Of a stretch of 64,000 nucleotides of DNA, positions 4,792 to 56,367 are shown one piece after another. Source of the stretch: Tubulanus polymorphus (lineage: Eukaryota > Animalia > Nemertea). A program made the translations under genes and the position numbers. The notes beneath the pieces were generated by a model, which was not told where the DNA came from, ran no database searches, and saw nothing but the letters and a program-made list of their open reading frames with translations. Each line of letters opens with the position of its first letter. Within the stretch, counting starts at the first letter, position 1. The stretch covers positions 14,230,485 through 14,294,484 of the forward strand of contig NC_134027.1 in NCBI RefSeq assembly GCF_964204645.1, written 5' to 3'.

Positions 4792-5356
4792 AAATCTTGG
4801 TTATTACCACAATCTGTGAGAGTTACCATGGTAATGCATTGCAGATTTTTAATGATTGCCCTCATATTATTGCGTTCACAAGGGTTCAGAGTTGCAACAG
4901 CGACCTTGACACATGAAGTATCCAGGTGTGCAAATTTTTTATTACATCATAGTACTCAACATAACCAACACCCGGCAGTCTGGCGATATGCATGCAGAAA
5001 GATTAAAAATCTATTCTGCGATGTATTTTCAATAATGTATATCAAAAGTTGCATTTTGAAAACTGTACTTAATGCATACAATATAATATTAATTGGAAGA
5101 AATGGCGTAGATTAGAAGATTAGATTCCAAAACTTGATTGGTGTTTATCATCAATTACCTCTAGTCAAAATGGTTGTCATCATGATAAACAACGGCAAAT
5201 TTTCTTTAAGTGGATCTGGTATAAAATGTATTACAGTAGAATAATATGCATGAGTCAGATCACTTTTTATCCGTCGTCCATCCATAGATGAAATCCAGTA
5301 ATTTTGGAAGTTTAGAAGACTCTTCAATGGATTGTCTTTATCTTTGATTATACATG

Positions 5357-5918
5357 ATTAATAGGGGTAATGGGCTTTCAAGCCAAAGGCCGAATGGTCG
5401 AGCTCATTAAAAAACAAAACATTAAAAGTAATTTAAAACTATAATATATTTTCATAACCGTGTGCATTTTATATTATAACTAAATATTTATTCTAAGATA
5501 TCAATAATTTAAATTTTAAAAGCATATTGTATTAAATCAATTGGTCGCTCCACTTCGCAACCGCTCCGTTCCGCGACCAATTGATTTATTTACAATACAC
5601 AAATTCATATAATCAAATATATTTTAATAATAATAATTATTCTATTATTCAACTGAAATACACACGGTTATGAAAATATATTATAGTTTTAAATTACTTT
5701 TAATATTTGTTTTTAATGAACTCGACCATTCAACCTTTAACCTGAAAGCCCATTACCCCTATTACTCTTAAAATGTTCATGTAAATGAATAACATTTAAA
5801 TTGACAGATTATTCAATATAAAAGTATATATTTACAACATTATTTCAATATTCATATTTGTGTGAGTTAGATTTTTAAACATTAAAAGTGTTAGTAAAGT
5901 GTTATTGAAATAATGCAT
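5357..5918 (+). repeat. Left TIR of Polinton; first 410 bp (5357-5766) form an imperfect palindrome
   Basis: Near-perfect reverse complement of 22197-22758; a second inverted copy of the terminus ends at 5766 (CCCCTATTACT). Confidence 0.95.
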
Positions 5919-5972
5919 GATATAAATCATTGAACTTCTAAAATCAATTTAAAAAAAAAATTTAGTATTAAA

Positions 5973-8900
5973 ATGGAAGCAAATAAGTACTACTGCCCAA
6001 AATGTAATATCAATATAGATAAATCCCAAAAATCAAGACACAATAAAACTAAAACACATTTAGAGAATAAATTGAAACTAGAATATAAAGATGATATATT
6101 AGAAACTAAATTAGATGAATTAAAGAATGAAAAAGAAACATACAAACGTGATACATGTAATCAATCATTCAGTGATAAAAGATATTATAAAGAACATTTA
6201 AAATCTAAAAGTCATATTAGAAATAAGAATAATGATATTTTAGGTGAAGATTATTTTGATAAAGATAATGATAAGAAACAGAAGACAATTAAAAGCATAA
6301 AAAATAAATTAAACAATAAAAGACCATACATGGAAGATGTAAGAAATTATATTAATTCATTAGATAATCAAAAAGATATAGAGATGACCGAAGCATTTAA
6401 AAGTGATATTGGTCCAGCAGCTATCGAGTTTAAATTTCATAAAGGAAAAACATTAGAAGAAAATAAAAAACATTTAGAAAATATGAAAGAAATTATAAAA
6501 ATAATAACTGATGTTGAATATCCTTAAATTAGTATATCTTCTAAAGTAAAGTTTATAAAATCTGAAGATAAACCAATATATAATATAAATTCTCATTCAC
6601 AACATATTATTTCAAAACAACATATAGATGATAAATTAGATAAATTTTATAATGAAGTAAAAACTAAAATAGAAGAGAAATATTTTGAAGGATCTGGTTT
6701 AATATTTGATGAAATAATATTTATGACTTTACATGTTTATAACACAAAATATAATAAGTTAACAAAATCAAAACCAATTGATGAAAATAATGTATCATAT
6801 TATAAAGAACCAGATATTGAAGCATCGAGTTATATTAAACTACCATTTAAAACTAATGCTGTTATTAATGTACAAAATGAAGATGATAAATGTTTTCTAT
6901 GGGCTATAATAAGTTGTTTACACCCAGTTGAAGATTATAAACAACATAGTTTTAGATTAACAAATTATAAACAATTTGAAAATAATTATAAGATAGATAA
7001 GTATCCTGTTATAATTAAAAACATCCCAAAAATAGAAAGAGATAAATATAAAGATAAATTTATTTGATTTAATCAAATTACCAAATACAAAAGGTAACAA
7101 TATAAAACATTATACATTAGAACCTTTATACCTATCAAAAGATTATGATTCAAACGATGTTATAGATATATTATATTATGAGAATCATTATATGTGGATT
7201 AAACAAATCAATTTATTTTTTAAATCAGAAAATGATCACCATAAAATATATCTTTGTAGAAAATGTTTACATAAATTCAGTAATGAAAGAACATTATTAA
7301 ATCATAAACAATTATGTGAAAATCATGATTATTGTAAATTAGTTTTACCAAATGAAAAAGATAAAATATTAGAATTCAAAAAATATGATTACAAAAATAA
7401 AGTACCATTTGTAATATATGGAGATTTTGAATCATTAAATAAAGAACTAACTGATCAAGATAGAAAAGAAATATATTATAAAAGAAAGAAATTAAATTCT
7501 AATGAAAATGATTTTTCAGATGAACCACCAAAAACAAATACTATTAAAAAGATTCATCAATCAGCTGCTGCTTTCGGGTTATATATTAAATCTGATTATC
7601 CAGAACTAATTGAAAGTGAATATTATCATTATAGAAATGAAAATGTTATCAATCATTTTTGTGACTTATTAATTGAATATGAAATAAGATTTAGTAAATT
7701 ATTGAATACAAATATAGAAATTATAATGACAGAAGAAGATAAAGAAGAATTTGCGTTTACAGATAAATGTTATTATTGTGAAAAGATATTTAATTATAAA
7801 GATAAAAAAGTAAGAGACCATGATCATTTGAATGGAAAGTTTAGAGGCGCAGCACATGAGAATTGTAACTTACAAGCTAAGAAAATTAACTTTGTACCAG
7901 TTATATTTCATGATCTATCAGGATATGATGCACATTTATTTATCAAACAGTTATGTCATAAAATAGAAGAAATTAATAATGAAATAGAAAGATTAAATTC
8001 AAATAGATCAAAAGATAAAATACCAACTTATAAATTTAGAATGTTAGCTAAAACATCTGAGAATTATATATCATTCCAATTTGGTTGCCTAAGATTTATA
8101 GATTCATATAGATTTTTAAATAGTTCATTAGATAACTTATCAAAATCATTAGTTGATGATGAATTAAAGATATTAAAACAACATTACCCAAATAATGATG
8201 ATTTTCAATTAATGAGATATAAAGGAGCAATTCCATATTCATTTTATAAATCACATAATGATTTCAATATGAGTTTCAGGTGTATTAGGTGATAGATATT
8301 TCAATGTAAATGATAACCCCGGATATAAGTTATTATATATAGATGCAAATAATTTGTATGGTTGGGCAATGATGGAACCACAACCTTATGGAGTATTTGA
8401 ATTAACTGAAGTTTTACAGAATGAAAATAATGATAAATTTGATTGGAAGAAAAGAATTCTAGATATTGCAGATGATTCAGATACTGGTTACTTCTTTGTT
8501 GTAGATTTAGAATATCCTGAAGATAAAAAATTTAAATCTAGAAATCTAGCTTACTGTCCCGAACATAAAACTGTAACACATGAAGAATTATCAAATTATC
8601 AAAAAAGAATTAAACCCGAAAATCATATTCATACAGAAAAGTTAATGGTAACTCAAGAAGATAAATATAATTATGTAGTACATTACAGAATGTTAAAGTT
8701 TTATCTAAAACAAGGAATGATTCTAAAAAAAGTACATAGATATATTTCATTTAGTCAATCTAAGTGGTTAGAAAAATATATAGATTTTAACACCAAACAG
8801 AGAATTGAAGCTAAAACTGATTTCGAAAAAGATTTCTTCAAGTTAATGAATAATGCATTGGTAAGACTTGTGAAAATATTAGAAATAGAAATGATATTGA

Positions 8901-9666
8901 GTTAGTCAGTAATGGTAAAAGGATAAGGCATTTACAATCATATCCTAAGTTCATTGGTAACAGAATATTTGATGAAAATTTAGCTGCAGTTAAAATGAGA
9001 AGAACATCAATGAAATTTAATAAACCAATCTATGTTGGCGCTTCAGTTTTAGAATTATCAAAATTACTAATGTATGAATTCTATTATAATGTATTACAAC
9101 CACTTTTTGGAGAAAAGCATATAGAAATATTATATTTTGATACTGACACTTACATATTAAAGATAAAAACTGATAACATAACTGATGATTAAAAAACATT
9201 AAAACATCATTTTGATTTCAGTAACTATCCTAAAAATCATGAATTGTTTAGCAATGATAATAAAAAAGTTCCCGGTAAATTCAAAGATGAATTAGGCGGT
9301 GAAGAAATGATTGAATTCATTGGTATTAGATCTAAAATGTATTCATATAAAACTAAAGAACATGAAGCTAAAAAGTTAAAAGGAATAACCAAAAGTGTAG
9401 TAGAAAAGAATATTCATTTCAACATCAATTGTATATTCAGTGAAGAAGTTAGAAAACATAAAATGAGATGTTTAAGATCTGAAGATCATGAAATGTTTAT
9501 TGAAGAAATTGAAAAGATAAGTCTAAACCCATTTGATGATAAAAGATATATTTTAGATGATGGAATTCATACAGTTGCTTATGGATGTAATTTAGATGAA
9601 TACTTAAAATTTAAAAGAGAAGAAACAAAAGAGAACGAGATAATGAAAAGAATTCTAACGTGTTAA
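5973..9666 (+). pseudogene. Protein-primed family B DNA polymerase (pPolB) with N-terminal C2H2 fingers, EGSG/terminal-protein region, OTU-like segment and EndoVII-like insert; disrupted
   Basis: Six ORF fragments join through in-frame stops and frameshifts: EGSG, NEDDKCFLWAI, VIYGDFES (ExoI), RDHDHLNGKFRGAAHENCN, HDLSGYDAH (ExoII), YIDANNLYGWAM (motif A), FFKLMNNA (motif B), YFDTDT (motif C), GKFKDE, RSKMY. Apparent internal deletion near 8270 (ExoIII region missing). Confidence 0.93.
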
Positions 9667-9695
9667 TCAAATTTTAATAAAAATATGTATTATAA

Positions 9696-10049
9696 ATGGA
9701 GAGTAAACAAACACACAGTGAGAACAACAAATTATTTCTAGATAGAATTAAAGATATAACAAATGTAAAATCTGTAGATTATAAATTCAAAAAGTTAACA
9801 GAATTAACAATCCATAAGAAATATCTAATTACAGATATTGTTACAGTTACTAATAACTATGGAGATAAATTAGTTATACACTTAGAATATGAAGGATTAA
9901 AAGGAAATACATATAAATTCAGAACATATTTACCGGATAGATTTCATAGATTTTCAAGTGAAGATCTAGAAGAATTATGTTCTGGTGATTTCTATTTCGT
10001 ATACAAAGGTAAGAATGAAAAAGGGCATCATGAAATAGATTTCGAATAA
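9696..10049 (+). CDS. Small Polinton protein, possible OB-fold ssDNA-binding protein
   Basis: Intact 117 aa ORF right after pPolB; beta-rich pattern KKLTEL...Y.I.....TNNYGDKLVIHLE...TYLPDRF; function inferred only. Confidence 0.45.
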   Translation: MESKQTHSENNKLFLDRIKDITNVKSVDYKFKKLTELTIHKKYLITDIVTVTNNYGDKLVIHLEYEGLKGNTYKFRTYLPDRFHRFSSEDLEELCSGDFYFVYKGKNEKGHHEIDFE

Positions 10050-10063
10050 AATATGTAAAATAA

Positions 10064-10827
10064 ATGGTAGAATTAAAAGAATACAGAATATTTGTTGATT
10101 CTAGAAGACTTACTAATTACAAATCACATAATATACTAGTACAATTAGATAGAGAATTCAAGAATTGTGTAGATTTAAAATTAGTTAATATAAGTTTATG
10201 TAATTCTTTTTATAATATATCGAATAAAACTATTGAACATAGAGCCTTTTGAGTTTTTAATAGACACATAGATTCATGGGTCTATATATATTTAAAACCG
10301 GGGTTATATAATTTAGATACATTAGCACAAGAAATTAATAGAAAAGCCTGGCACAAATTAGGTAGTAGTTCTGGGTTTAGTATTAGATTTTTAAAAAGTG
10401 ATAGTTCTGATGGAATCAAGATAAGTGTTGTCTAATAGTGAAAAACATAAATTTATGGTAAAAAAAACCTATAGCTAAACTGTTAGGAATTCTTCCAGAT
10501 AGATCTTTTACAAATATTGATGCTGCTACACCAAACTTAATACCTTACACGCATTTTTATATTTATTGCAATTTAATCGATCCTACAAAAACATTCGAAG
10601 CAACTAAAGATATAACTTGTAATTCTGGTTTACTAAACATTTTACCATTGAAGAATGTTAAAGAATTTGGAACGCAAATAAATTATAATTTAACAGAATG
10701 TGATTTCAAACCATGCATTCCTCGTTTTAATAATTTTAGATTAGAAATTAGAAATCACAATGGATATTTAATTGATTTGAATAACTTTCCTGTAATTTAT
10801 GAATTAGTTATAAGATGTAAAGAGTAA
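10064..10827 (+). pseudogene. Minor capsid protein (penton, single jelly-roll), disrupted
   Basis: N-term RIFVDS...LKLVNISLCNSFYNIS, then LKPGLYNL; C-term FYIYCNLID...LLNILP...FRLEIRNHNGYLIDLNNFPVIYELVI*; stop at 10250 and a frameshift. Confidence 0.75.
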
Positions 10828-11186
10828 TTTTTTTCACTATATAAATGAATATAACTGTTGGACCGAGTATATGTTTTGGGTTTGATTTTAAACATGGTAA
10901 AGAAATGAGAATTAAACTAAATGATGTAATTACTGATATAAAAAGTAAATCATTTAACAATGCATCAATGATTAATAAAGAAAATTATGATATAGAAAAA
11001 GTAATTGATTTAATTAAATCACCTTAAGAATATTATGAATTAAATGAATATGGAATTATTGATGATAATAAAAACATATTAACCAAAATATATGATAATC
11101 ATAAAAGTAGTAATGAAATAAATGTTGAAATAATCATAAATAAGTTAACTAAATATTTTGAAGATAGTAATTTTTTTGATAAATAA

Positions 11187-11408
11187 ATGAGTGATAATAA
11201 GTGGATAATAACTGGATTATATAATGGCGCATTACTATCAGTTGGAACTGTTGGTTATTCAATGGTATTAAAAAAAGTATTCAAAATGGGAAGTGTTAAT
11301 GTTGATAGATTTGATATAAATGATATTTTAAAATTTACGTTAGCAGTTACTTTATCTAATTTAACTATTGATTATTTGGAAAAACAAAAATATATTCCTC
11401 CCATATAA
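11187..11408 (+). CDS. Small hydrophobic Polinton protein
   Basis: 73 aa, two hydrophobic segments, TAAATG start. Confidence 0.6.
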   Translation: MSDNKWIITGLYNGALLSVGTVGYSMVLKKVFKMGSVNVDRFDINDILKFTLAVTLSNLTIDYLEKQKYIPPI

Positions 11409-11432
11409 ATGCGTAATTATTTTGCTAAATAA

Positions 11433-11858
11433 ATGGCTTCTGCAATTATAACTATTATAGGATCGGCGATTGTTAACGCTTTAGCATTTACTGGTGGTGG
11501 TTATTTATTCAAGCATATTGATAAAAATGGTTCATTAACAGAACAAAAAAGAAATAACTTAGCATTAGAGAAATATAATAAAGCAGCAGAAGAATATAGA
11601 GAAAAGAGGCAAAACTATATGGATTATATTAACAAGGAATTATATGATCAGAAGATTTCACATAGAGATTTTCAATCAGTTGATGATGCAATGAGTTTAT
11701 ATAACGCGGTAACCAATAAAGAAAAATTACATCTATACAAACCTAAATTATCAGATTATTATACCCCGAGTAAAGAACAACAGAAATATGAAATAATATG
11801 GATTTTAGGCGGAACTGTTATTGTTATATTTGTTGCTTATAAGTTTACTAATAAGTAA
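11433..11858 (+). CDS. Polinton membrane/coiled-coil protein
   Basis: 141 aa; N-terminal hydrophobic helix (IIGSAIVNALAFTGGGYLF), coiled coil, C-terminal TM segment. Confidence 0.7.
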   Translation: MASAIITIIGSAIVNALAFTGGGYLFKHIDKNGSLTEQKRNNLALEKYNKAAEEYREKRQNYMDYINKELYDQKISHRDFQSVDDAMSLYNAVTNKEKLHLYKPKLSDYYTPSKEQQKYEIIWILGGTVIVIFVAYKFTNK

Positions 11859-11874
11859 TTTTTTTGCTAAATAA

Positions 11875-12285
11875 ATGGAAGATAAAGTTGATAATATTGA
11901 TATTATTCCTCATGATATAAATAAAGCTAAATTAAAAACATATTTAGAAAAACAAATATTAGAATTTGAAAGTGACTTAAAGATAAAAAAGAAAAAATAT
12001 TTGATTATAAGTGGTTCGGTTACAATTAGTTCTGTAATAACATTTCTAGCAATATTCAGCCCATTAACACCTTTAGGTATATCAATTGGCGTATTAGGAT
12101 TAAGTTCAAGTGTTTTAACTGGTATAAGTTCAAAATTGAATATAAAAAGTAATAAAGAAAAAATTAAAACTAATATAAAAGAAATTAATAAATTAAAGAA
12201 TACACTAGATTATATAATAAGTTTAAATGGTCATATAACAGTTGAAGAACAAGATAAATTATTAAAAGAATTAGTTAATTATTAA
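11875..12285 (+). CDS. Polinton two-TM coiled-coil protein
   Basis: 136 aa; hydrophobic hairpin flanked by Lys-rich coiled coils. Confidence 0.65.
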   Translation: MEDKVDNIDIIPHDINKAKLKTYLEKQILEFESDLKIKKKKYLIISGSVTISSVITFLAIFSPLTPLGISIGVLGLSSSVLTGISSKLNIKSNKEKIKTNIKEINKLKNTLDYIISLNGHITVEEQDKLLKELVNY

Positions 12286-12301
12286 TTTTTTAATTATATA
12301 A

Positions 12302-13641
12302 ATGGGGTTTCCAAAAGCTTTCCAATATAATAAATCAATTAAATATAATATTCCTGCAATAGATTTTAAGAAAAATATTACATATAAAAATGTAGTTTTA
12401 AATTCATTAACTAATTTAGAAATTTATGTTACTGAATCACAGTTTTTAATTTCTAAAATGGAAAATATATTTAATACATATGAAGTTACTTTTACTCGAG
12501 ATGAATACCATATATATAAAGTAAAATCTAATATGAAATATTGGCAGAACCAATTAGATTTTGCTGTTTATTGTGCAACAACAGGATGTGGAATAAGTTG
12601 GAATGATCATTTAAATAACTTAGATAAAAATTTGATGTATTCTGATTTAGATTAATTCACACAATATTTAGATTTCACACATATTTTCAAATCAGAATAA
12701 TATTAAATGAATTAGAATGTCCTTCACCCGGGTCTAAATATTTTAAAGAATTGGATAATAATATTAATCTATCTAAGTTTTATAAAATATGTAACGAATT
12801 TAATATAAATATTAATTCCGATTTTAGAGCGCATGGTAAATTGCAAGGTGTTGGTGAAGAGTTTGAAATAAAAAGAATTGATTATATGCATAGAATTGGA
12901 GCTTATCATAATTATAAAATTGATAATAATAATGGTTGGGTTAATTTCATTTTAGAAAATGGTGAAGGTTTTACAAAATCAGGTATACAAAGAATAAATC
13001 AATCTATTAGAACTTATTTAATTTGTATTCTAGGTGCGCAAGTTGAAACAAGATCCCCAATAATTGGAAATGATAACACTTCATTCGATGCGCAGAAACA
13101 ATTCAAAGTATTATTTGAAGATTCTATTCATAATGATAAAAATAGATCGATTCCAGAAAACATTGTAAGATATCAAAATTATTTAGATAAATCACATGTA
13201 AGACTAAATTATTGTATAGGCCCTAATCTATTAATTATTTCTAATGATTTAGTACTAAAGATGGGAAATATAATTGGTTATAATAATCTAATTAAAACTG
13301 CAACAATAAATAATTCATTTGGATTAAATGATATAAATAAAAAGATTATCACTGCTCCAAAATTAATGGAAGGTGAAAAAAATAAAAAACAAATTCAATC
13401 AACAGAAACTAAAACTAATAATATTAAATTAAATAATGATTCTAAACCGGATTATAATACATCAGAAAATATTAGAACTGATAATATTCAACATGAAATA
13501 ATTAAACTAAATGATGATAATAAATCCCATGAAAATACTAAATTAGCTTTATCTTGTATAGGAATTGTAATCGGAGGAATATTATATTTTAAATTTGAAT
13601 TTTGTTATTATGTAAATGGCAGAAGGCGGAGAAGATTATGA
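12302..13641 (+). pseudogene. Conserved-looking Polinton hypothetical protein with C-terminal TM, frameshifted
   Basis: Two ORFs in different frames; motifs WQNQLDFAVYCATTGCGIS and GFTKSGIQRINQSIRTYLICILGAQ. Confidence 0.6.
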
Positions 13642-15074
13642 AATGGGAGACATGGGAAATAATAATGAAGGATATATTGATGATGATTATAATGATGCAG
13701 AAACTAATATTGATGATGGTACTGAATCAGCATATAATTCTAATTTAGCAGATAGTGGTTCTAAGGCCCCATCAACAGAGGATTATATTAGAAGAACTAG
13801 ATCGAGAATAAATCCTGAAAATGAAAATCAAGGTTTATCAAGACAAGATTTAGAAAATAATGAATTTATATATAATTTCCAACCTGTATTTGAAAGGTCT
13901 GGGTATAATATAAATGATAGAGGCGCCAGACTTTTAGTAGAAAATTTAAAACTTTTTAAAGGTAAATATTATTATCATTTGGATGGTGATTATTATATTG
14001 ATATCACTAATCAAAGGACAAGACTAACTAAAATATCAGCGGAATCAACTTTGAAAAATTTAGAAACATTTAGAATTAAGAGAATAAGTAATAGTAATGA
14101 AATAACTGATGTTACACAAAAAGAAAGAGATGATAATATGCCAGAATTGAGTCAAAGAATTGATGACTTATTAAAAATAATCAATAAAAATTCAGAAACA
14201 GAAACAACTTCTGAACAGAATAAAACTTCCAAAACTAGTAAACTTAAATCAAACGAAGTTCAAACTGAAAAACTTTTACCGAATGGATTACTTGATGCAA
14301 CAGATCAAGAAATAGAAGCTTTAAGTATGTTTTCTAAAAAAAACAATTAGAGAAATAATAAGTATACGAAATGAAGCCGATAAAATTGCGCGCGAAAAAA
14401 ATATTAGATATAATAAAATTAAACCTTTAGAAAATAGATTATTTGACACCAGAAAAGAATTAGAACAATTAAAATTAGATAGAGAATTTAAAGTTATTGA
14501 AGAAATTGAATTTAAAAAAAGAAATGCATATTTAGAAAAAGAAATTGATGATTTAGAATATAACATAGAATTTCAGAAAGAAAAAATGGAATTATTATTA
14601 AAATCATATGATTATTGTATTAATAGATTAAAAGTTGTTGTTAAAGAGTTAATACTAAAACCAAATTCTGACATATCACTAAAAGATAGAATAAAATTAT
14701 TATTTAAGTTTGAAGGAATAACAATTCTTTCAATTCTAACAGCTGTAACTATGTTATTTACAACAATCGGTTTAGCTATATCAAATGCTTTAAAATCTAC
14801 TCCTACTCCCAATAAACCGGATAAACCCCCGAATGATAATAATTCTATACAAGATAAAGTTAAGGATGGTTTAAAGAAATTAGCAAAATATTTATGGGAA
14901 CTATCTAAAAAATCTGCTGCAGCTTTACCAGGAATTATTGCATCAATTGTTGGTTTTATATTGAAATCTGCAGGGAATATTATTAACTTTGCTGCTGAAC
15001 ATATTATTTTATTTTTAATTACAGTTGTAAGTGCTATTAATTTTGGATTAGTAAACATGATAAAAAATAAATAA
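13616..15074 (+). pseudogene. Acidic N-terminus/coiled-coil/C-terminal membrane protein, frameshifted in A-run near 14340
   Basis: ORFs 13616-14350 and 14586-15074 are linked by an open coiled-coil-like frame; C-terminal hydrophobic helices. Confidence 0.6.
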
Positions 15075-15094
15075 TTAATTTTTTTGTTAAATAA

Positions 15095-16342
15095 ATGAGT
15101 GGGAGTTATATCAATCCTTCTAAGAATCATAGAATATCTAATGCTATTAAAGCAGACAGATCACATCATATAATTACTCATAACCCTTCTAATATTAATC
15201 CCGATGAAACTTTATATGTTAGAATTCCTCGATTAACACAAAATACTTTTTATGTTCCAAATAGTATTTATTTATCAGCCGATATAAAAGTAATCGGTAA
15301 TAATAATAATTATATTGTTGATAATGTTGGAAGATATTTGATTAAAAAATTAACTATAAAGATTGGTCCAGAAACAGTTTTCTCATTAGATGATTATAAT
15401 TTATTTATGCATTATAAAGATGTATGGTTAACTAAAGAAAATAGAAATAATATGATTTTTCAAGGCATCCAATCAGAAAACCAAAATAAATTAAGATCAG
15501 AAGCTAATAGCGCAATATTAACTAATGCTGTAGATAAATTGATAAAAAGTATATATGGAAGCAAATATAAAATTCCATTAGACTTTGAATTGATGAATAA
15601 CAATGCACCTTTATATAAATACGCAATTCAAGAAGACGTTATATTCGAAATAACATTTGCTCCTGTAAATGAAATTGTATTATCTAGCGTTAATAAAGAT
15701 ATGGGTTATAAATTATCGAATATATGTTTAGAATATGATACAGTTACTGATGAAAATATTTCAAGTATAATTCAAACTCAATATAATCAAGGATTTTCAT
15801 TATTATATGATTATATTGATAAATTTAAAACTGTAACTATTAATGCAAATGATGAAATTATTAATGAGAATATTAACTTCCCAAGAAGATCTATTAAAGG
15901 TATATTAATATTTTTTACTATTGCAACATATACTAATGGCGCAATAAATGTTGATAATTATTATAATCCTGAAATAACAAAAGTAGAAATAACTATCGAA
16001 GGAATAGCAAATAAAATATTTTGTCAAGGAATGAGAATGATTGATCAATGGCCAGAAATTAGAAAACATTTTATGAATGAAAAAGTGAAATCATCTGAAA
16101 ATTGTAATATTAATCAAATTGATTATTATACCGGTAATAAATATGCATTATGGTTAGATTTTAGAACAACAGAGGATAATTCATTACATGGTTCTGGAAA
16201 AAAATTACAGAACACTAAAGATGGAATACAATTATTCATGACAAAGAATAAAGGAATCAAAAATTTCAAAATGCACATTTATATTATATCTGACGGGCAA
16301 TTAAATATTGTAAATTCTCAATTAAATAGTGTTATGTATTAA
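15095..16342 (+). CDS. Major capsid protein (double jelly-roll), intact ORF
   Basis: 415 aa beta-rich ORF (HNPSNINPDETLYVRIP, NVGRYLIKKLTIKIG, YKIPLDF, LSNICLEYD, PRRSIKGILIFF, YYNPEITKVEITIEG, ALWLDFR); size and position fit a Polinton-like MCP. Confidence 0.8.
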   Translation: MSGSYINPSKNHRISNAIKADRSHHIITHNPSNINPDETLYVRIPRLTQNTFYVPNSIYLSADIKVIGNNNNYIVDNVGRYLIKKLTIKIGPETVFSLDDYNLFMHYKDVWLTKENRNNMIFQGIQSENQNKLRSEANSAILTNAVDKLIKSIYGSKYKIPLDFELMNNNAPLYKYAIQEDVIFEITFAPVNEIVLSSVNKDMGYKLSNICLEYDTVTDENISSIIQTQYNQGFSLLYDYIDKFKTVTINANDEIINENINFPRRSIKGILIFFTIATYTNGAINVDNYYNPEITKVEITIEGIANKIFCQGMRMIDQWPEIRKHFMNEKVKSSENCNINQIDYYTGNKYALWLDFRTTEDNSLHGSGKKLQNTKDGIQLFMTKNKGIKNFKMHIYIISDGQLNIVNSQLNSVMY

Positions 16343-16378
16343 AATTTTTACTTTAATAAAAATATATATATATAATAA

Positions 16379-16954
16379 ATGGAAGGAGGTAAAGTACATA
16401 AACATATTCCATACACCGATACACATGAAAATAATGATGGTTTATATTATGTAATACCTTGTAATATAGCTTTGATATTTGATCCTATTTTCAAAATTTA
16501 TAAAACTAAACTAATAGAAATCGATAATAATAAAAGTGGTGTTGTTGATAATTTAAGTAATGTAATTGATAATAATGTAATACCTTCTACATCTAATAAT
16601 GTAATACCTACTACATCTAATAATGTAATACCTTCTACATCTATTAATGTAATACCTTCTACATCTAATAATGCAATAATATTAAATGTTAGTGAAAATA
16701 GAAATTATTGTGATTATTGTAAAGGTGAATTTTCAAACGCTCCATCAAATTGGAATAATCATATGAATACAAATTCACATATTACTAATGTTATAAAACG
16801 TGTTGGTTTAAGAGAATTTATAGAACACCCATTTAGATATGTTACAAAGTTTGTTTCAAATCAAAAAGTAAATGGTAAAGAATTATATGAAGATTTATTA
16901 TTAGCAACACCTAATAAAGATGAATTAGATATAACCGATGCTAATGAAATATAA
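16379..16954 (+). CDS. Hypothetical protein with (NNVIPSTS)n repeat and C2H2-like finger
   Basis: 24-bp tandem repeat at ~16570-16670; CDYC...HMNTNSH motif. Confidence 0.55.
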   Translation: MEGGKVHKHIPYTDTHENNDGLYYVIPCNIALIFDPIFKIYKTKLIEIDNNKSGVVDNLSNVIDNNVIPSTSNNVIPTTSNNVIPSTSINVIPSTSNNAIILNVSENRNYCDYCKGEFSNAPSNWNNHMNTNSHITNVIKRVGLREFIEHPFRYVTKFVSNQKVNGKELYEDLLLATPNKDELDITDANEI

Positions 16955-17619
16955 GGACCAAACACTGTAAATGAAATATTAGGAGCAAACACTAATAAAG
17001 ATAATAATGAAAATACAGGAAAGCGCATTGATAATAAAGATTATATGAAACTTAAATCAGAAGATAAAGATATAGTTGATATGACTAATAAGTATATCAA
17101 TAAACCAATTATTTATGAAGATACGGTAAAAAGGGTGAAGAATAAGTACAAAAATAATAAAGAATTTGAAGAAGAAAATTCGGTAGAGAATTTGAATAGA
17201 TTGTTAGGGTCTGATGATGAATTGGAGAGTGATGATGAAAGTGATTCAGAAAGTGATTATCTAACACTCAAAAAGTAATAAACGTTGAAAATTGTATAAA
17301 ATAATAGTAAATAAAAAAGGGGGGTTTAAGTATTAAGGTATCTAATACGTATCTAATACGTATCTAATACGTATTTAATACGTATTATTTGAAAATACCT
17401 TAAATTATATTTTTTTTAAATTTATATTAGAAACCTCAGTAATAATAAATAACCTTTATTATTTTCAAACTTATTCATATATTAGTTGAAAAAAATAAAA
17501 ATAAATTGGTTGAAAATTGTATGAATTATATTTATTTTAAAAAAGGGGGTTTTAAGTATTAATGTATTTAATACGTGTTTAATACGTATTTAATACGTAT
17601 TAGATAGATATATAAATAG

Positions 17620-18228
17620 TTATTTTATAAATTTATATTCATATGGAAATTGTAATCTCAGTAATAATTTTGAACCTTCATTATTCTTTAATTTATTCAT
17701 ATATTCATCATGTAATTCAGTAGGTATAATTTGATTTTCTTCCAATGATTGTTGCATAGATTTTTTATCTTTGTTATAAAATAAAACTAGAAATCTTATA
17801 TTCTCCCTAAAGTCTTTAACAATTGAATTATATTTTTGATTTTAAACCCATGTTATCCCAAAATGTCTCCCAGAGAAAGCTAGATAACATAACTCACTTT
17901 CTCTAACTTTTGAATCATGTAAATTTGCGCAATCATCTATAATGAATAATGTATTTGATCCTTTATAAGTATCAATTGCTATTTTAATACAATTATCTAA
18001 ATTTTCTTTTACTGTTTTAGGATTTAATATAATAAACTTTTTTATCTTAACTATGTCTCTATTATATGTTTTATTCATTTCATAAGTAGGACAAAATAAT
18101 ATTATATTATCAAAATAATTCTTATAAATAGTTTCTAACAAATCTAATATGAAATGTGTTTTACCACAGTTTGTTACACCAGTAACTAACATATTATGCG
18201 GTTCACATATAAATAAATCTTTATTCGT
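17620..18228 (-). pseudogene. A32/FtsK-like DNA packaging ATPase
   Basis: Walker A GVTNCGKT, Walker B FIIDD, SGRH motif; in-frame TAA at 17842 then NQKYNSIVKDFREN; probable start mutated ATG>ACG at 18228. Confidence 0.9.
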
Positions 18229-19333
18229 TTATTCTTTTAATTTTACTAGATAAAATCCATTCATTAAATTTATCACCATGTCCTTTATATTTCACCAAAG
18301 AATACTTTTTTCCTTTAAGAGTTTTTGTTTTCAATACTTTTTCTATTTTGTATTCTATTTCATCTGGATTTGGTACAAGTGATAATTCTTGTTCATAGAA
18401 ATAACCTAATATTTCTTCATCTTTTAAATCTTCTAATTTATAAACAAATGGTTTAGTTAATATTATCTTTTTAATCTTGAATATTTCTTCAGTAAAATTT
18501 GGAGTATAACCTTTATAAAATGTTTTTCTATATTTAGATATTCTAACATGTTGTCCAATTTTAAATTTTGGTTCTCCGAAATCAGGTGTAACAAACACAC
18601 CATACAAATTATTCCAAACTATTTCTGAATTATCTTCTTTTCTAGCTTGTATAGGTTTCATATTTATAGAACTATGTTTAGAATTATTATAACCTTTCAC
18701 TAAATCATCTAACACATCGATATATTTATATGTTTCATTAGCAGTAAAATATTTCCACATTCTAGTTTTCAATGTTTTATTAAACCTTTCTATAATAGAT
18801 GCTTTTTTATCTGAGTGTGTTGAAAAATATTTTACATCGTTATCAGATAATAGTTTTTAAAAATGTTTGTTATAAAATTCCTTACCTTCATCAAATTGTA
18901 TCTTATCTGGAATAGCTTCTTTAAATATAGATTTAAAAGCATTTGTCACTTCTATTCCAGTTTTATTTTTGATTGGAATTGACCATGCGTATCTACTGAA
19001 TATGTCTATAACATTCAGTATCCAGAAATATCCTTTGTTGTATTCCTCTAAGTTCTTCATGTCAATTAAATCTGCTTGCCATTGTTGATCGATATATGAA
19101 ACCATAACTTTTCTTGTTAAATAAGTTTTATCCATTTTCCTGTGGATTTGATATGTTGGTTGATTTTGTAACCATGATTTCAATTCACTATATTTTATAT
19201 CACCGTGTGGGTGCCGTACGGCACCATTTTCATTATCAGATTTAATTATATTCCATAATTCTGAAACGTTAGAATATGATACTTCACTTTCTGGGTTATA
19301 ATATAAATCTCTTAAATATTGTTCTTTTTTCAT
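18221..19333 (-). pseudogene. Retroviral-like (rve) integrase with C-terminal chromodomain
   Basis: WQADL, IDIFSRYAW, QFDEGKEF, IIERFNKTLK (DDE); chromodomain YKIEKVL...LVKYKGHGDKFNEWI; single in-frame TAA at 18857. Confidence 0.93.
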
Positions 19334-19339
19334 CTTCTT

Positions 19340-19708
19340 TTAATCCATTAATAATAATCTTGGGTTATTTTCAATGGTTTTAGGATTTGACTTATTTTCT
19401 GGTATGATAGGTTTATTGTCATTGGAATCATATTTATCATCAGATTTGAATTTTGATTTATATATTACACCAGATAATATAATAACTGTTACTAATCCAA
19501 TTGTAATATATAATTTATAATTACTTCCAGCATTAGAAGAATTAGATGGATTATTATTTGAATCAATATAAGATAAAGTCTGTGATTCATTTATATCAGT
19601 TAATTTCTTTTTCTTAGCTTTTTTTAATTCTGAAGATCTTTTACCTAATTCTCTTGCCCATTTGATTTGTTTCTTGGATCTAGCCTTTTTCTTAACGCTA
19701 TCACTCAT
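19340..19708 (-). CDS. Basic N-terminus plus single-TM Polinton protein
   Basis: 122 aa intact ORF, TAAATG start overlapping the upstream stop. Confidence 0.6.
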   Translation of the reverse strand: MSDSVKKKARSKKQIKWARELGKRSSELKKAKKKKLTDINESQTLSYIDSNNNPSNSSNAGSNYKLYITIGLVTVIILSGVIYKSKFKSDDKYDSNDNKPIIPENKSNPKTIENNPRLLLMD

Positions 19709-20303
19709 TTATTTTAGTTAATTTTTGTTCTGAATCATTTTCTGTTTCGACGTTTGGTTGTAGTACATCTGTTTCATTCTTACCTGAATTATATTCCATA
19801 GGCTTGATGTTCGAAAATGTTATGACGCCAGTAGAAATTAATGTCATAACCGATCCTAATTGAAATGAAGCATAACCAACCCATTTTTGTAATTCAGTCA
19901 TAACTAAATAGTCATTTTTCGAATCACTATATAATTTATTTTCATCATCAATTGGTATTAACTGGTTACATAACTTAGAATAACATTTGACAATACCATC
20001 TGAAATAGAATCATTTATTCGGGCTAATCTTGCCTCTTCATAAATCTTAAAATATTTTATTACTTTATCTGGTTTCATAGCATCTAGTTCTTGATAAGTT
20101 AAAATTTTTCCCAAGAAACCCTTAGATTTCCCGCCAGCAATTAATAATTGAAGATGATGCTTACAATATAAATAGTTTTCATAATCAATATTACAATTAA
20201 CTTGAGCACAATTAGTTACAACTGTATCTTTATTATCACTTATACCCAAATCATCTAATGTCTTTTCAATATCAATACTATTCTTACTCGATTTCTTTGA
20301 CAT
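19701..20303 (-). CDS. Polinton hypothetical helical protein
   Basis: 200 aa intact ORF with TAAATG start. Confidence 0.6.
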   Translation of the reverse strand: MSKKSSKNSIDIEKTLDDLGISDNKDTVVTNCAQVNCNIDYENYLYCKHHLQLLIAGGKSKGFLGKILTYQELDAMKPDKVIKYFKIYEEARLARINDSISDGIVKCYSKLCNQLIPIDDENKLYSDSKNDYLVMTELQKWVGYASFQLGSVMTLISTGVITFSNIKPMEYNSGKNETDVLQPNVETENDSEQKLTKINE

Positions 20304-20639
20304 TTATATTAGAGAAAAAAGCGAAAAAAAATATAAGTATTATAAAATGATACCAGTATCTCTTTAGATTAATACTAGCTTAGTTAAAGGTAAAGAATTT
20401 TAGTATTAGTTATTGTTTTTTTAGTATTTTTTATTTGTGATATAAAGTATTCTCTTTTGAAAAGAATTGTAAAAGAAAATATCAAAAATTAAAATAGAAA
20501 TAATGGCTAGCTGAAGTTATTGTTTTTTTAATATATTTTATTTGAATTCTATTTGATATCACCACGTGGGTGCTGTACGGCACCATCTCACTACTTTTGT
20601 TTATCTATTAGGAGCAGTAATTATAACTGTCCAGATAAG

Positions 20640-21110
20640 TTATTTCGGATCCTTGATATCAAATTCCTCAACATATTGTTCATTATTTGGATCATTGTTC
20701 CATTGATCAATAAATTTCTTTGCCTTTGTTAACTGTTCTAAATATAACTGTAAATCTAGTTTATTAGATTTGATTTGATTTTCTTTCTTTTCTAAAGGCC
20801 TTAAATTTTTCCAACCCCAAATAAGTTTTTTATTGTATTCAACATTCATGTTAAATTTAGATATTTGTAACACGTGATCAATATGGTAATAATCCCCATA
20901 ATTATCTTATTCATTTTATCATCGAATTGAAATATAATCCATGATTTGAGAAATTCATCTGAACAACCCAATAGATTAGATAGTGTTTCTGAATGTGTTT
21001 CTTTGTTGAATAATTGTGTTAATCTAGATCTTAAGCATTGTTTCAATCTAAAATTAAGATCTGTTTCATATCTTTCTCTCATATATTCTGTCACATAATC
21101 ATTATAAGCT
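20640..21110 (-). pseudogene. HNH-type endonuclease resembling those of large DNA viruses, frameshifted and 5'-truncated
   Basis: Joined reading: DLNFRLKQCLRSRL...LLGCSDEFLKSWIIFQFDDKM / NYGDYYHIDHVLQISKF...WKNLRPLEKKENQIKSNK. Confidence 0.7.
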
Positions 21111-21149
21111 TCTCTATTATCTTCTCGATATTGTTACAATACCCGCGTC

Positions 21150-21485
21150 AGATGCGGACATACAGGCGCGCTTTTGCTTAATGCACATGTGTTAATCATA
21201 ATTATATATTCATTCTATAAATTCTGAAAAATAGAAACAACACATGCGTTACATGCGTCACATGCGGCCATTTATGGCCGGTTTTGCTTAATGCGCATGC
21301 GTTAATCATAATTATATATTCATTATGCAAATTCTGTAAAATAGAAACAACTGAACATAGAAAATTCAAACGCATTCATGTCCTCGTCACATGCGTTACA
21401 TGCGTCACATGCGGCCATTTATGTCCGGTTTTGCTTAATGCGCATGCGTTAATCATAATAGAAACGACTGAACATAAAAATTCAC
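21150..21485. repeat. Three degenerate direct repeats (~110-150 bp) inside Polinton
   Basis: Core CATGCGTCACATGCGGCCATTTATG.CCGGTTTTGCTTAATGCGCATGCGTTAATCATAAT repeated. Confidence 0.85.
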
Positions 21486-22196
21486 CATTCAGATTTACAC
21501 AATACATTATACAAGTTGTTCAGTCGTTTCTTCCAATACATCATTTGATTTCTATAAATACAATTTATAATTACAAACATTTTTTCAATTGCTGGTAAAT
21601 ATTTAACTACATCATCAAATGTTAAACTTAATCATTGGAGTCCTAACGTTTTTGAAATTCTTATATAGTTTCTTCGTCGATCTTTTGGTGATTCTTGTGT
21701 TTCTTGTGCTAATTTCTATTGGTTCGATATCCATTGCTGTTGATTCCTCAGTCAGAAAGAGTATCTTGAGTTTCTCTATCACTTCTTGATGCGTATGGCG
21801 TTTTATTAATCTAAAAGATATTAGCGGCAACTCTAGCCATCTACAAGATATACTAAATACACTTAAATATATCTAAAGGTTTCATATTTAATAGCCCTAA
21901 TAACTACAAAAAACAGTACTTACATTTAGATTTAGAATTGTAAACTATAAACTCCTAATTTCGTTTCGAGAGATAGAATATCCTGAGCGTAATGTTACAG
22001 CGCCTGTTCATTTCCTGCCACGTCATCTGGTTCCGGCACACCTTTCTAGAATTTTCTCTACACGTTTGCATATGTCTCATATGTCTCGGCGTCATAGTAA
22101 CAGCTGTAACAGCTGTGAATTTATAGATTTATTCCATAGCTCTCTACATGGAATGTATATAGGCTCAAATAGAATCATGTTCTAGTATAAACAGCT

Positions 22197-22758
22197 ATGT
22201 ATTATTTCAATCACACTTTACTAACACTTTTAATGTTTAAAAATCTAACTCACACAAATATGAATATTGAAATAATGTTGTAAATATATACTTTTATATT
22301 GAATAATCTGTCAATTTAAATGATATTCATTTACATGAATATTTTAAGAGTAATAGGGGTAATGGGCTTTCAGGTTAAAGGTTGAATGGTCGAGTTCATT
22401 AAAAACAAATATTAAAAGTAATTTAAAACTATAATATATTTTCATAACCGTGTGTATTTCAGTTGAATAATAGACTAATTATTATTATTAAAATATATTT
22501 GATTATATGAATTTGTGTATTGTAAATAAATCAATTGGTCGCGGAGCGGAGCGGTTGCGAAGTGGAGCGACCAATTGATTTAATACAATATGCTTTTAAA
22601 ATTTAAATTATTGATATCTTAGAATAAATATTTAGTTATAATATAAAATGCACACGGTTATGAAAATATATTATAGTTTTAAATTACTTTTAATGTTTTG
22701 TTTTTTAATGCGCTCGACCGTTCGACCTTTGGCTTGAAAGCCTATTACCCCTATTACT
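22197..22758 (-). repeat. Right TIR of Polinton; last 410 bp (22349-22758) form an imperfect palindrome
   Basis: Reverse complement of 5357-5918; inner AGTAATAGGGG at 22349, outer CCCCTATTACT at 22758. Confidence 0.95.
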
Positions 22759-22805
22759 TACATGTGTCTATCACAGAAACATTCCTGCTGAATATTATTA
22801 TTATA

Positions 22806-53459: not shown

Positions 53460-55154
53460 AATATCACTAGTAGACAATCTTTAATTATTATGTTAAAAAA
53501 CTTAATTTGAATTATACAGTTTATTGTTAAGCTCATGAATATATCTATGAGTTTTTAAACTCTTTAAATTTTTATATCTTTTATTACATATTTCGCAGCA
53601 TTTAATATTATTAATTCTATCTGAAATATAATTTATGTTTTCTTTTAATTCAGCGTATCTAATTTTACAATTATCATAGAATTCTAACAACTGTTTTATA
53701 GTATAAATTGAGAAAGAAAATAAACCTGAAAGCATAATAATTGATTTAATATTCTGTTGATTTTTAGTTATTAGATGTAATAAGTTTAATACCTTACTTT
53801 CACTCATTTTTATAGTTAAAATATATAAAATAAATTAAATTAAAAGATGCTGTTTTAATCCTACAAATCATTTAAATCAATAACTTTTTTATTGTAATTT
53901 TTTCTGTGATTGTTTCCATTTAACTTCTTTAACTTTTTACTCAATTTTATATTTTCATTCATCAGATATTTACTGATATTTTCATAGTAAAAGTATAATG
54001 CAGCCAATATTAACCCTCCTGCTACACGATAATGTTTCAAATCACTTTTTCCAATTGGAATGCTGAAACCATCCATTTATTTAAGAAAAAAATAAAAGTA
54101 ATTTGATATATCTTATTTTGAATATGAATATTTAGAGTTGAATTATTATTTTTGAGTTATGATATTTCTATTTAAGATGGTGTGATTTATTGCTTCGAGT
54201 ATATTATTTTCCACAATTAATTACATAACACTTTTTCATTAGGTTCATATTTAGGCGTAACAATTTCATTATCCAAGTTATATTGAGTTCCCACATCTTT
54301 GAATAATTTTTCATTATCTAAATCACATTGTATACCAATATTTGATGAATTTTCATTATACATAATTTGTTTATTATTAAAATTAAAATAATATACTTGT
54401 CTTTTTTCAATTCTTAAGTTAATCAAATCATTATAATCTTTTGAAAGTATCAAATCATCATTTCTTTCATTGAAAGGAGTTTGAAGTATATTTACTATGT
54501 TTTCATCTAAAGTTCCTTTATAATTTAAAACTGTATTGAATATTTTAGGATTTTTAATGCCATTATCAAAAGTATCTACTAGTTCAGTAATTAAATATGT
54601 TTCATTTGATGATATTTGATTAATTATAGTAATATTTTCAATTTTATAATGTCTTGCAGACACTAAATTTGTTGCTGAAATATAATTTCTAATGTTAAAC
54701 TGTGAAAATAATTTATTGGCTTCATTGATTTCGATTTTGAAGTTGGGTTCGTCTTCTTCTTTCTTCATTTTAATAACAAAACTTTTATTAAAACTCATTC
54801 AAATATAAATATTCAATGATTTAAATATGAATTATTTCACTCACACTTTACTCACACTTTTTATGCTTGAAAATAAGAATTTAACTCATATAAATATAGA
54901 TATTCACTGTTTTGAATATGAATTTTTTTACTCGTTAATTACTCACACTTTTTATGTTAAAAATTGATTTTTTATCACTCGAAATCTATATTTGATCTTA
55001 TTTTTCTAGATTATTATGCTAACATTTTACTCTCACTTTTTAAACATGAATATTTTAAGAATAAATGGGAATATGTTGTTTCAAGTTAAAGGTTGCATTT
55101 TCTACTCACTCGACCTCTCAACCTTTGGCTTGAAACAACATATTCCCATTTACT
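53460..55154 (-). mobile_element. Truncated second Polinton-like element end (three AT-rich ORFs plus hairpin terminus)
   Basis: ORFs 54217-54798, 53861-54076 (TAAATG start) and 53502-53807 (C2H2). Terminus 55060-55154 folds back on itself and ends in ACT; the CATGAATATTTTAAGA context is shared with 22334-22349. Confidence 0.7.
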
Positions 55155-56367
55155 GTGATTCACAGATGTTGGAAGTAAAAGCCTCTCTGAGCAAAAGGTT
55201 TAAAATGAAAGACCTAGGTGAGTTGGTTTCTGGGTATAGAATTCAATGTAAATAATGACTGTATTCAGCTTACTCAGAAACAGTACCTACTAAAAGTGTT
55301 TGAGAGGTTTCGCATGAGTGAATGTAAACCTAGGTCCACCCCATCAGACCTGAAACTAGAATTTGATTCCGAATCTGAGCCATGTGATCAAAAGTCGTAT
55401 AGACAAGCTGTGGGAAGCCTCATATACGCGATGACGTGTACGAGACCTGATCTGTGTTGGATCGTGACCATGTTGTCTCAGTATTTATCTAAACCTACGC
55501 AACAACACTGGACAGCCATCAAACATGTATTTAGATATATATAAAAGGTACTATTGATTATGCTTTCGAAAATCATCCGAAAGTCTTAGGGTCATAGGTT
55601 TTTCGGATGCAGACTGGGGGTTTGGCTCATGATCGACGTAGTATCAGTTTTGCTCTATCAGTACGGTTTTGCTCTATCAGAAAATGGCACCGTTACATCA
55701 CGGAAAAGCAGAAAGCAAGCAAGTGTAGCTCTGTCTACCTGTGAGGCAGAGTACATGGCCTTATCCCTGGCCGCACAAGAGAGTATCTATCTCTTGTTAA
55801 TTTCTAAAAGAAATTGACCCTGAAGAAAATTATTACCCTTCAACTTTGTATGAAGACAATCAAGGTACCATTGGTCTGGTGAAAAGTCCCGTAAACCACC
55901 AAAGGAGTAAACATATATGTATATATTAGGTATATAACATATATAGGTATCACTTTATTAGGTCCGAGTATGCAATGGAAAAATTGAAATATTGTATAAA
56001 CCAACAGAATGTACGATTGCAGATATGTTTACGAAAGCTGTATCAAAAGTTAAATTGAATCAATTTTGCGAATTTCTATTTGCCTAAAATGGAACGACTG
56101 TACCACACAATACGACTGAACGTATACACTTAATCAAGTGGGGGTGTTGATATATCATGTGATCAAGTGTAAAGGGCGCCTAAGGATAGAGGATTATCTG
56201 AAAAGATGTCTTTAACATCTGACACTGATCACTATCTGACGTAGATTCGTTTGTTTTTATTCCTCTTTAGGCGATGCAGTTATCAAATACATGGATATGA
56301 ATTTGAATCTTTTAACTTGGGAATTTCTCGATGTTACTTGATGGATGTTATTTTCTAAAATCTAACA
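55155..56367 (+). mobile_element. Ty1/Copia 3' fragment (RT, RNase H) with PPT and 3' LTR (56145-56367)
   Basis: FKMKDLG, YRQAVGSLIYAMTCTRPDL, FSDADWG, VALSTCEAEYMAL, EDNQG, RSKHI, IADMFTKA; AAGTGGGGG then TGTTGA...CTAACA. Confidence 0.88.

Follow-up and report, generated by a model that had tools for sequence, protein, structure and literature searches.

Why should both terminal inverted repeats (TIRs) of a Polinton open with a second, inverted copy of their own terminus? The question is raised by an element of the nemertean Tubulanus polymorphus, which lies in a stretch of 64,000 nucleotides (contig NC_134027.1, positions 14,230,485 to 14,294,484) analysed here as a whole and referred to as the window. 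An initial annotation of this DNA had described a fold-back cassette at the start of each TIR and had offered three ideas for it, namely a local panhandle origin for the protein-primed polymerase (pPolB), flip/flop isomers and an excisable mini-element. Both cassettes are found where that annotation had placed them, with the length given there, at the start of TIRs of about 561 bp (Table 1).

Table 1. Features of the element, of its left fold-back cassette and of a truncated sister element, in window coordinates.
Feature	Position	Strand	Remarks
Polinton/Maverick	5357..22758	.	17.4 kb, about 23% GC, several broken genes
Target-site duplication, left copy	5351..5356	+	6 bp, TACATG, matches 22759-22764
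Target-site duplication, right copy	22759..22764	+	TACATG, matches 5351-5356
Left TIR	5357..5917	+	11 substitutions relative to right TIR
Right TIR	22197..22758	-	
Left fold-back cassette	5357..5766	+	410 bp
Right fold-back cassette	22349..22758	-	410 bp; loop 22543-22566
Outer arm, well-paired part, true terminus	5357..5468	+	1287 loose-ended reads with mixed flanks before 5359
Inner stem	5533..5588	.	16 bp perfect (5533-5548 with 5573-5588); closes loop 5549-5572
Inner arm, inverted copy of terminus	5657..5766	-	flush to last base; rarely a real end
Post-cassette part of TIR	5767..5917	+	length varies among copies; deletion joints, e.g. 5796-5923 (266 reads)
Polymerase gene	5973..9666	+	in six pieces; domains read from intact relative L001
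Double jelly-roll capsid	15095..16342	+	against PBCV-1 capsid: Z 21.1, rmsd 3.7, 323 aligned
A32-type packaging ATPase	17620..18228	-	in pieces; PF04665, E 8.5e-10
Retroviral-type integrase with chromodomain	18221..19339	-	two open frames; PF00665 E 1.2e-7, PF00385 E 0.002
Fold-back of truncated sister element	55060..55154	-	95 bp, 36-bp arms, z -12.5

The element is a Polinton by its boundaries as well as by its genes. The duplication of the target site (TSD) is perfect on both flanks, the TIRs are 98% alike, and the ends are of the AG...CT type, AGTAAT... corresponding to (AGT)2 with one letter changed (available text of PMC8097293). The integrase, the A32 ATPase and the double jelly-roll capsid are all encoded; the PF00665 score of the integrase is slightly below the curated cut-off because the gene is split. 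Polintons/Mavericks, which include the polintoviruses and adintoviruses with their TP-vOTU-Exo-Palm polymerase, are described in the same available text as having TIRs, a 6-bp TSD, AGT-type ends, pPolB, an rve integrase, an A32 ATPase, a double jelly-roll capsid and a length of 17 kb, in all of which this element resembles them. It differs in the inverted duplicate of the terminus with which each TIR opens. A maturation protease was not detected by sequence: among 26 frames Pfam gave no match for a Ulp1/adenain protease, a minor capsid protein, a Rep/HUH gene or a resolvase.

The polymerase of the window is 75% identical to the intact genes of two relatives, referred to as L001 and L004. The N terminus of the L001 polymerase has an LF/PAD-like terminal-protein fold (Z 8.1, rmsd 2.9, 104 aligned), which is followed by an OTU fold (Z 7.5, rmsd 3.4, 99 aligned). 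A protein-primed polymerase with terminal-protein and vOTU domains is accordingly predicted for the element by way of L001, the window gene itself being broken, and this layout matches the account of polintons in the accessible part of PMC11161782. The window polymerase also contains an endonuclease VII-like domain.

Some other features of the element are recorded here. A small gene (9696-10049) is situated 3' of the polymerase in the window and 5' of it in L001 and L004. A weak AT-rich palindrome (66%) occupies 17339-17606, where two convergent gene blocks meet. The broken frame at 20640-21133 on the reverse strand is HNH nuclease-like by eye, has no Pfam match and has kin frames in L001 and L004; three direct repeats of 102 nt are found upstream of it at 21140-21498.

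The left TIR folds with -128.9 kcal/mol (z -19.8), and none of 100 shuffles folds as well. The loop is 24 nt long and GC-rich, and the first 46 bp or so of the outer arm make up an end motif that is common to the relatives. From the tip towards the loop the two arms agree in 23/24, 19/26, 56/60, 42/68 and 21/23 columns. The outer pairing and the inner stem had been taken for two separate stems; as read from the sequence, the whole cassette is one old and decayed inverted duplication of about 190 bp. Letters that tell the arms apart (outer AAGCC, inner AGGTT) are present in both TIRs, which upholds the earlier view that the palindrome is older than the integration. The further claim of four identical ends holds for three, which start with AGTAATAGGGG, while the left outer end has a private change, T at position 2. 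No TSD is present around the cassette alone, and no Rfam family reaches its gathering score on the cassette (best E 0.54).

The substitutions between the TIRs are unevenly placed, 5 of the 11 being in the first 48 bp (5357-5404 / 22711-22758; p 0.001). The left outer arm, unlike the right one, agrees with the inner-arm letter at positions 16, 39 and 48; these sites vary within the family according to the reads. A spaced direct repeat of the GGTCGA type is located at positions ~31-46 of all the ends (5383-5402 in the window; also in L001, L004 and L005). It is likely to be a protein-binding part of the origin, and it may resemble nuclear-receptor half-sites.

An assembly artefact could have produced such a structure, and raw Illumina reads bear on this point. 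The reads are those of run X6, of which 12% was used; its study, P3, is not the one that supplied the best-matching contigs. Depth rises from ~5x in the host flank to ~720x in the element interior and ~1320x in the cassette centre, and the loop and the inner end are covered at ~1300x. This raw-read depth establishes that the cassette is real and family-wide, and corresponds to about 250 cassettes and 137 elements in the host if the flank is single-copy. The ratio of cassette to interior is 1.84, or ~1.8 cassettes per element. A further run, X1 (share 0.05), gave 7 short records. Over 4900-6700 the contig depth of element relative to flank is far higher in X2 than in X3, two runs of the same study; contig depth is not copy number and enters none of the copy counts given here, but free element DNA may be amplified in X2.

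The same reads distinguish the two ends of the cassette. At the right cassette, depth past the inner end is 93% of that inside, and past the outer end it is 5%. The outer end has 1583+235 (=1818) loose read ends with mixed flanks (agreement 0.34-0.38); the inner end has no loose-end row among the best 6 of 164 rows, the smallest of which holds 199. From depth and loose ends together, solo cassettes, elements ending at the inner terminus and inversions of the whole cassette each stay below ~10%. The inner end is thus seldom, if ever, used for integration, and the proposal of an excisable 410-bp mini-element, or of a second integration end, is not borne out. Nor do the reads, which concern integrated copies only, support flip/flop isomers as a regular product: there is no loop-edge joint among the best 15 of 24 joints (smallest 4 reads), and among the best 40 variants just two single loop positions vary. 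Opposite-strand joints between matching arm positions amount to 1.4-2.5% of depth; either infrequent exchange between the arms or template switching during PCR could give rise to them.

Sister groups are also represented in the reads, with only the first 40-57 nt of both arms in common and with 199+237 (=436) inner and 474 outer loose ends, whose tails look like mirror images by eye. Joints that bridge the arms over 11 or 32 other letters correspond to much shorter cassettes, and the reads point to additional cassette size classes in the host. Between 5937 and 6086 the depth remains close to that of the TIR, and at 6086 a tail common to 313 reads sets in; in one subfamily the TIR seems to extend into the 5' part of the polymerase gene.

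A second fold-back is present within the window itself, at one end of a truncated, AT-rich sister element (53480-55154, reverse strand). Its outer-CC/inner-TT mismatch and the start of its post-cassette sequence are identical to those of the main element, and the part of the post-cassette TIR beside the first gene is likewise shared with it. The end at 55154 has been placed by TIR likeness only, because no polymerase is left. The other end of this element is missing; it sits in a region of copia-type reverse transcriptase (PF07727 at 55218-55541). One of its three frames has a C2H2 finger, and none of the three matches the 144 loci or the main element.

Relatives were fetched by polymerase (123 loci), and only a few of them have a readable end. 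L004 carries a 257-bp cassette of which both ends are present. L001 starts inside its cassette, the outer arm being lost at the contig start, with a 16-bp stem and an inverted terminus that ends at base 120, from which a cassette of ~175 bp is estimated. L005 has the same 46-bp end motif without an inner copy, and the distant L013 (simple ends, 5/6 TSD letters) and L069 also lack it. A search for an inner copy at 11 ends, belonging to 9 elements, was positive for 4 (0/200 shuffles) and negative for 6, with L082 borderline (4/200). In L023, L082 and L101 the end coincides with the start of a record or locus and may differ from the true terminus. Siblings of the element thus do carry the inner inverted terminus, in the reads, in L001, in L004 and at the sister end, and the sister lineage L005 is without it.

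In a polymerase tree of 15 rows, with one frame from the window, the window groups with L001, L004 and P0123 in a clade (100/99) to which L005 is sister. The polymerases of the clade are 75-78% identical. The fold-back therefore marks a clade, on the basis of all three members with a readable end and of one close outgroup, L005. Its lack in L005, L013 and L069 indicates that the cassette is dispensable for this type of polymerase. The endonuclease VII-like domain is also present in L005 and in L090, both without a terminal fold-back, and a tie between that domain and the cassette was therefore abandoned. Cassettes occur in at least four lineages and range from 95 to 410 bp, with the form kept and the sequence not. 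CCACTTCG stands in the loops of the window (5550-5557) and of L004 (315-323), the rest of the DNA being not alignable; the loops of L001 and the 95-bp form do not contain it and have nothing evident in common with the main loop. L004 has in addition a direct second copy of the first 17 bases of its terminus at 948-964, between the small gene and the polymerase.

Several other candidates have been set aside. The palindromes upstream of the polymerase in L076 (~520 bp) and L090 (~180 bp) are intergenic, that of L076 recurs in L064, and neither is a terminal cassette. The one shared by L076 (2719-3242) and L064 (15188-16673) is a decayed palindromic repeat that lies within a distant Polinton and recurs on another contig, and is probably a small transposon. 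A palindrome in L045 overlaps the polymerase match at the contig start and is a probable assembly product. The 24-nt end pattern gave 0 stretches in viral contigs and 0 in metagenome contigs, and capsid queries found no relative in the viral contigs. A looser end pattern matched 21 viral loci, none with a fold-back beginning at the match and all comparatively GC-rich, and these are regarded as chance matches.

The two arms of the cassette have changed jointly. Differences between outer arms at positions 1-28 are mirrored in the inner arms in 8/9 cases between the main and sister elements, in 9/13 between the main element and L004 and in 11/13 between the sister and L004. Within the family, the inner arm has 11 variable columns and the outer arm 10, of which 6 coincide and show the same two letters in both arms (7e-5 under uniform chance; read variants, unphased, 22 rows from the best 40 of 174). 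The CC/TT pair and the post-cassette bases that the main and sister elements have in common argue for one origin followed by concerted change, and not for repeated fresh duplication.

The arms also have a fixed polarity, position 27 being C in the outer arm and T in the inner arm of all three lineages with both arms. In 12 of 13 arm transitions (9/10 when shared ones are counted once, p 0.02) it is only the strand with its 3' end at the terminus that forms a G.T pair. This strand folds better in the main element (-123/-118 as against -112/-105 kcal/mol), and likewise at the sister end. L004 has 9 transversions among its 12 mismatches and strands of equal energy (-69.4/-69.5), so that the strand argument is suggestive only. 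The G.T bias comes mostly from one family, and decay of a less constrained inner arm towards T could mimic it.

We propose, with a probability of about one in two, that a displaced single strand folds back at its 3' end, which provides protein priming with a duplex origin and repair of the tip with a template. A putative local panhandle origin is in this sense the best of the three ideas of the initial annotation. The duplication would have arisen once, in the ancestor of the clade of the window, L001 and L004, possibly when the polymerase turned back and copied its own end. One strand would be freed by strand displacement during replication, or by excision in single-stranded form, and its 3' end could pair flush with the inner arm 0.1-0.4 kb away and not with the other TIR 17 kb off. 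The terminal-protein polymerase would then start on the folded hairpin, while trimming and refilling of the 3' end, along with patch repair of the stem, would copy letters between the arms. Lasting mismatches would keep the arms unequal, such that only the outer arm works as an end.

The proposed role agrees with the conservation of the tip, with the mirrored changes and the polarity, with the disuse of the inner end and with the retained terminal-protein domain. The DNA read is that of integrated copies, from which we infer every mechanistic step. Trimming and refilling of the end alone cannot explain the mirrored variants at columns 78 and 105, which lie beyond the lasting mismatches. A flush 3' hairpin could moreover be extended as a primer, which the proposed role must suppress. 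Precedent for its parts is available in the accessible texts on other systems: the 3' overhang of Streptomyces telomeres folds back and is extended for repair before protein priming (PMC5449611), and restart on displaced strands is currently explained by a panhandle model (PMC11886824).

Among the alternatives, the one that survives best, unlikely as it is, is a neutral relic, in which a single copy-back accident has hitch-hiked with the element and the arms stay alike through gene conversion or mismatch repair of the hairpin, with no benefit to the element. The free variation of cassette length and loop and the elements that do without a cassette (L005, L013, L069) are what such a relic would leave. 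The pattern of conservation speaks against it: the tip and the loop-side stem are kept (23/24, 21/23) and the middle decays (42/68), and 36 bp of the end stay flush even in the 95-bp form. The cassette has also outlived 22-25% divergence of the polymerase in all three clade members with a readable end, and the fixed mismatch persists where blind conversion should erase it.

It is more doubtful that the cassette serves for excision alone, by extruding as a cruciform or a lagging-strand hairpin and being cut, which would free the element with folded 3' ends and no loss of terminal letters. The cutter could be the endonuclease VII-like domain within the polymerase, the integrase or a host resolvase. 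An inner copy flush with the terminus, the better folding of the 3'-ending strand and the presence of that nuclease domain suit this explanation, which is weakened because L005 and L090 hold the same domain without a terminal fold-back. Extrusion is inefficient for an imperfect stem with a loop of 24 nt, and the footprints of solo cassettes that excision should leave are not above ~10% in the X6 reads. Moreover, such domain insertions are taken for relics of inteins or homing nucleases in the accessible part of PMC11161782. Excision can also be joined to the proposed role: the cassette would extrude as a hairpin, the cut would leave a folded 3' tail as origin and tip template, and the mismatch at position 27 would mark the sole usable end. 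We hold this joint reading as a tentative one, to be placed after the neutral relic and ahead of excision alone.

Self-priming in the manner of parvoviruses, with a folded 3' end as primer and a dimer junction that is resolved on one side only, is improbable. It would account for a 3' end lying flush on a template that runs on into the element, and the lasting mismatch is reminiscent of the asymmetry at the left end of MVM as far as it is described in the available text of PMC1185569. A model of this kind has been proposed for the virophages of Halocafeteria (10.64898/2026.07.28.741278), whose palindromes, in the available part of that work, are mostly with non-pPolB elements. Here the terminal-protein and vOTU domains are retained, no Rep/HUH or resolvase gene is found in the 26 frames, and the joints listed from the reads include neither a loop flip nor an element-cassette-element joint.

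More improbable still is an RNA hairpin, by which a transcript running outward from a TIR promoter would form a long stem-loop (a regulator, a source of small RNA or a terminator) and G.U pairs would explain the strand bias. The favoured strand is indeed that of the outward transcript and the bias is of the wobble type. On the other side stand the Rfam result, the fact that 0/6 of the listed runs are recorded as RNA, and the stem flush with the DNA terminus, of which an RNA role has no need. It is hardly credible, lastly, that each TIR harbours, or is formed by, an independently mobile MITE with Polinton ends, since the cassette has two element ends but neither a flanking duplication of its own nor many free-standing copies, the reads pass its inner end with no mixed flanks listed there, the ratio of cassette to interior is 1.84, and the post-cassette sequence is common to lineages.

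Protein-primed systems offer one comparison for the proposed fold-back origin. Adenovirus, PRD1 and the bidnaviruses likewise replicate by protein-primed strand displacement, and their displaced strand is thought to regain a duplex origin (available texts of PMC11886824 and PMC4938981). Their panhandles pair the two ends of a genome, whereas either end of the present element can fold onto itself; for adenovirus and PRD1 the panhandle is said to lack direct evidence (PMC11886824), and bidnaviruses are described without terminal palindromes (PMC4938981), both as far as the available texts go. Streptomyces telomeres (Tpg/Tap) are alike in that a folded 3' single strand templates repair of the terminal bases, followed by protein priming. 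They are bacterial, contain several short palindromes in 170-180 nt and have Tap as a dedicated primase; a 13-nt palindrome serves there for the repair of 4 nt at most, and copying starts internally (PMC5449611, in its available text), whereas the cassette is one long duplication and its terminal protein is part of pPolB.

Hairpin telomeres form the other point of comparison. Those of poxviruses have an imperfect terminal palindrome with lasting mismatches. Parvovirus telomeres are alike in both respects in the available text of PMC1185569. The element differs from both in its open integrated ends with a TSD, and in the reads, where flip and flop do not occur in comparable amounts. No Rep/NS1 or resolvase was found among the frames searched; the endonuclease VII-like domain is present, but also in relatives without a cassette.

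The initial annotation had described fold-back ends as typical of parvo- and poxvirus telomeres. This was overstated, as terminal palindromes inside the TIR and beside the TSD, the nearest published case, are in print for Halocafeteria seosinensis virophages and for one PLV subtype (10.64898/2026.07.28.741278, in its available part). Those palindromes also belong to rve-integrated viruses of the same supergroup, and a hairpin role in replication has been proposed for them. In that text they measure 52 nt in the figured subtype, with a gap limit of 10, are accompanied mostly by non-pPolB genes and are read as self-priming; here the cassettes measure 95-410 bp, belong to a pPolB element with a terminal-protein domain, and have joint arm change and fixed polarity across lineages. 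Neither 'palindrom' nor 'hairpin' is used in the main text of two surveys of Polintons, one of vertebrates (PMC8097293) and one of nematodes (10.1101/2023.08.22.554363), and no such TIR is reported in the available parts of PMC11296320 and 10.1101/2022.07.28.501842. Our literature search found no pPolB Polinton described as having its terminus duplicated within the TIR, the 2006 founding paper, Repbase and the bioRxiv supplements, which may mention palindromic TIRs, being outside its scope.

The initial observation is thus confirmed, its interpretation is upheld in part, and the cassette is a new architecture of Polinton ends with a plausible, putative role in the restart and repair of single-stranded ends. 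Excision of Polintons, maintenance of their tips and restart on displaced strands are the questions that self-pairing ends address. A self-pairing unit as small as 95 bp, a sister lineage without the cassette and the intact polymerases of relatives make up a natural pair with and without the structure, and the 95-bp unit is short enough to serve as a substrate in the test tube. The cassette links protein-primed ends to hairpin ends, two kinds of ends of linear DNA that are usually kept apart. If it should be a relic, it still documents concerted evolution between the arms of one TIR.
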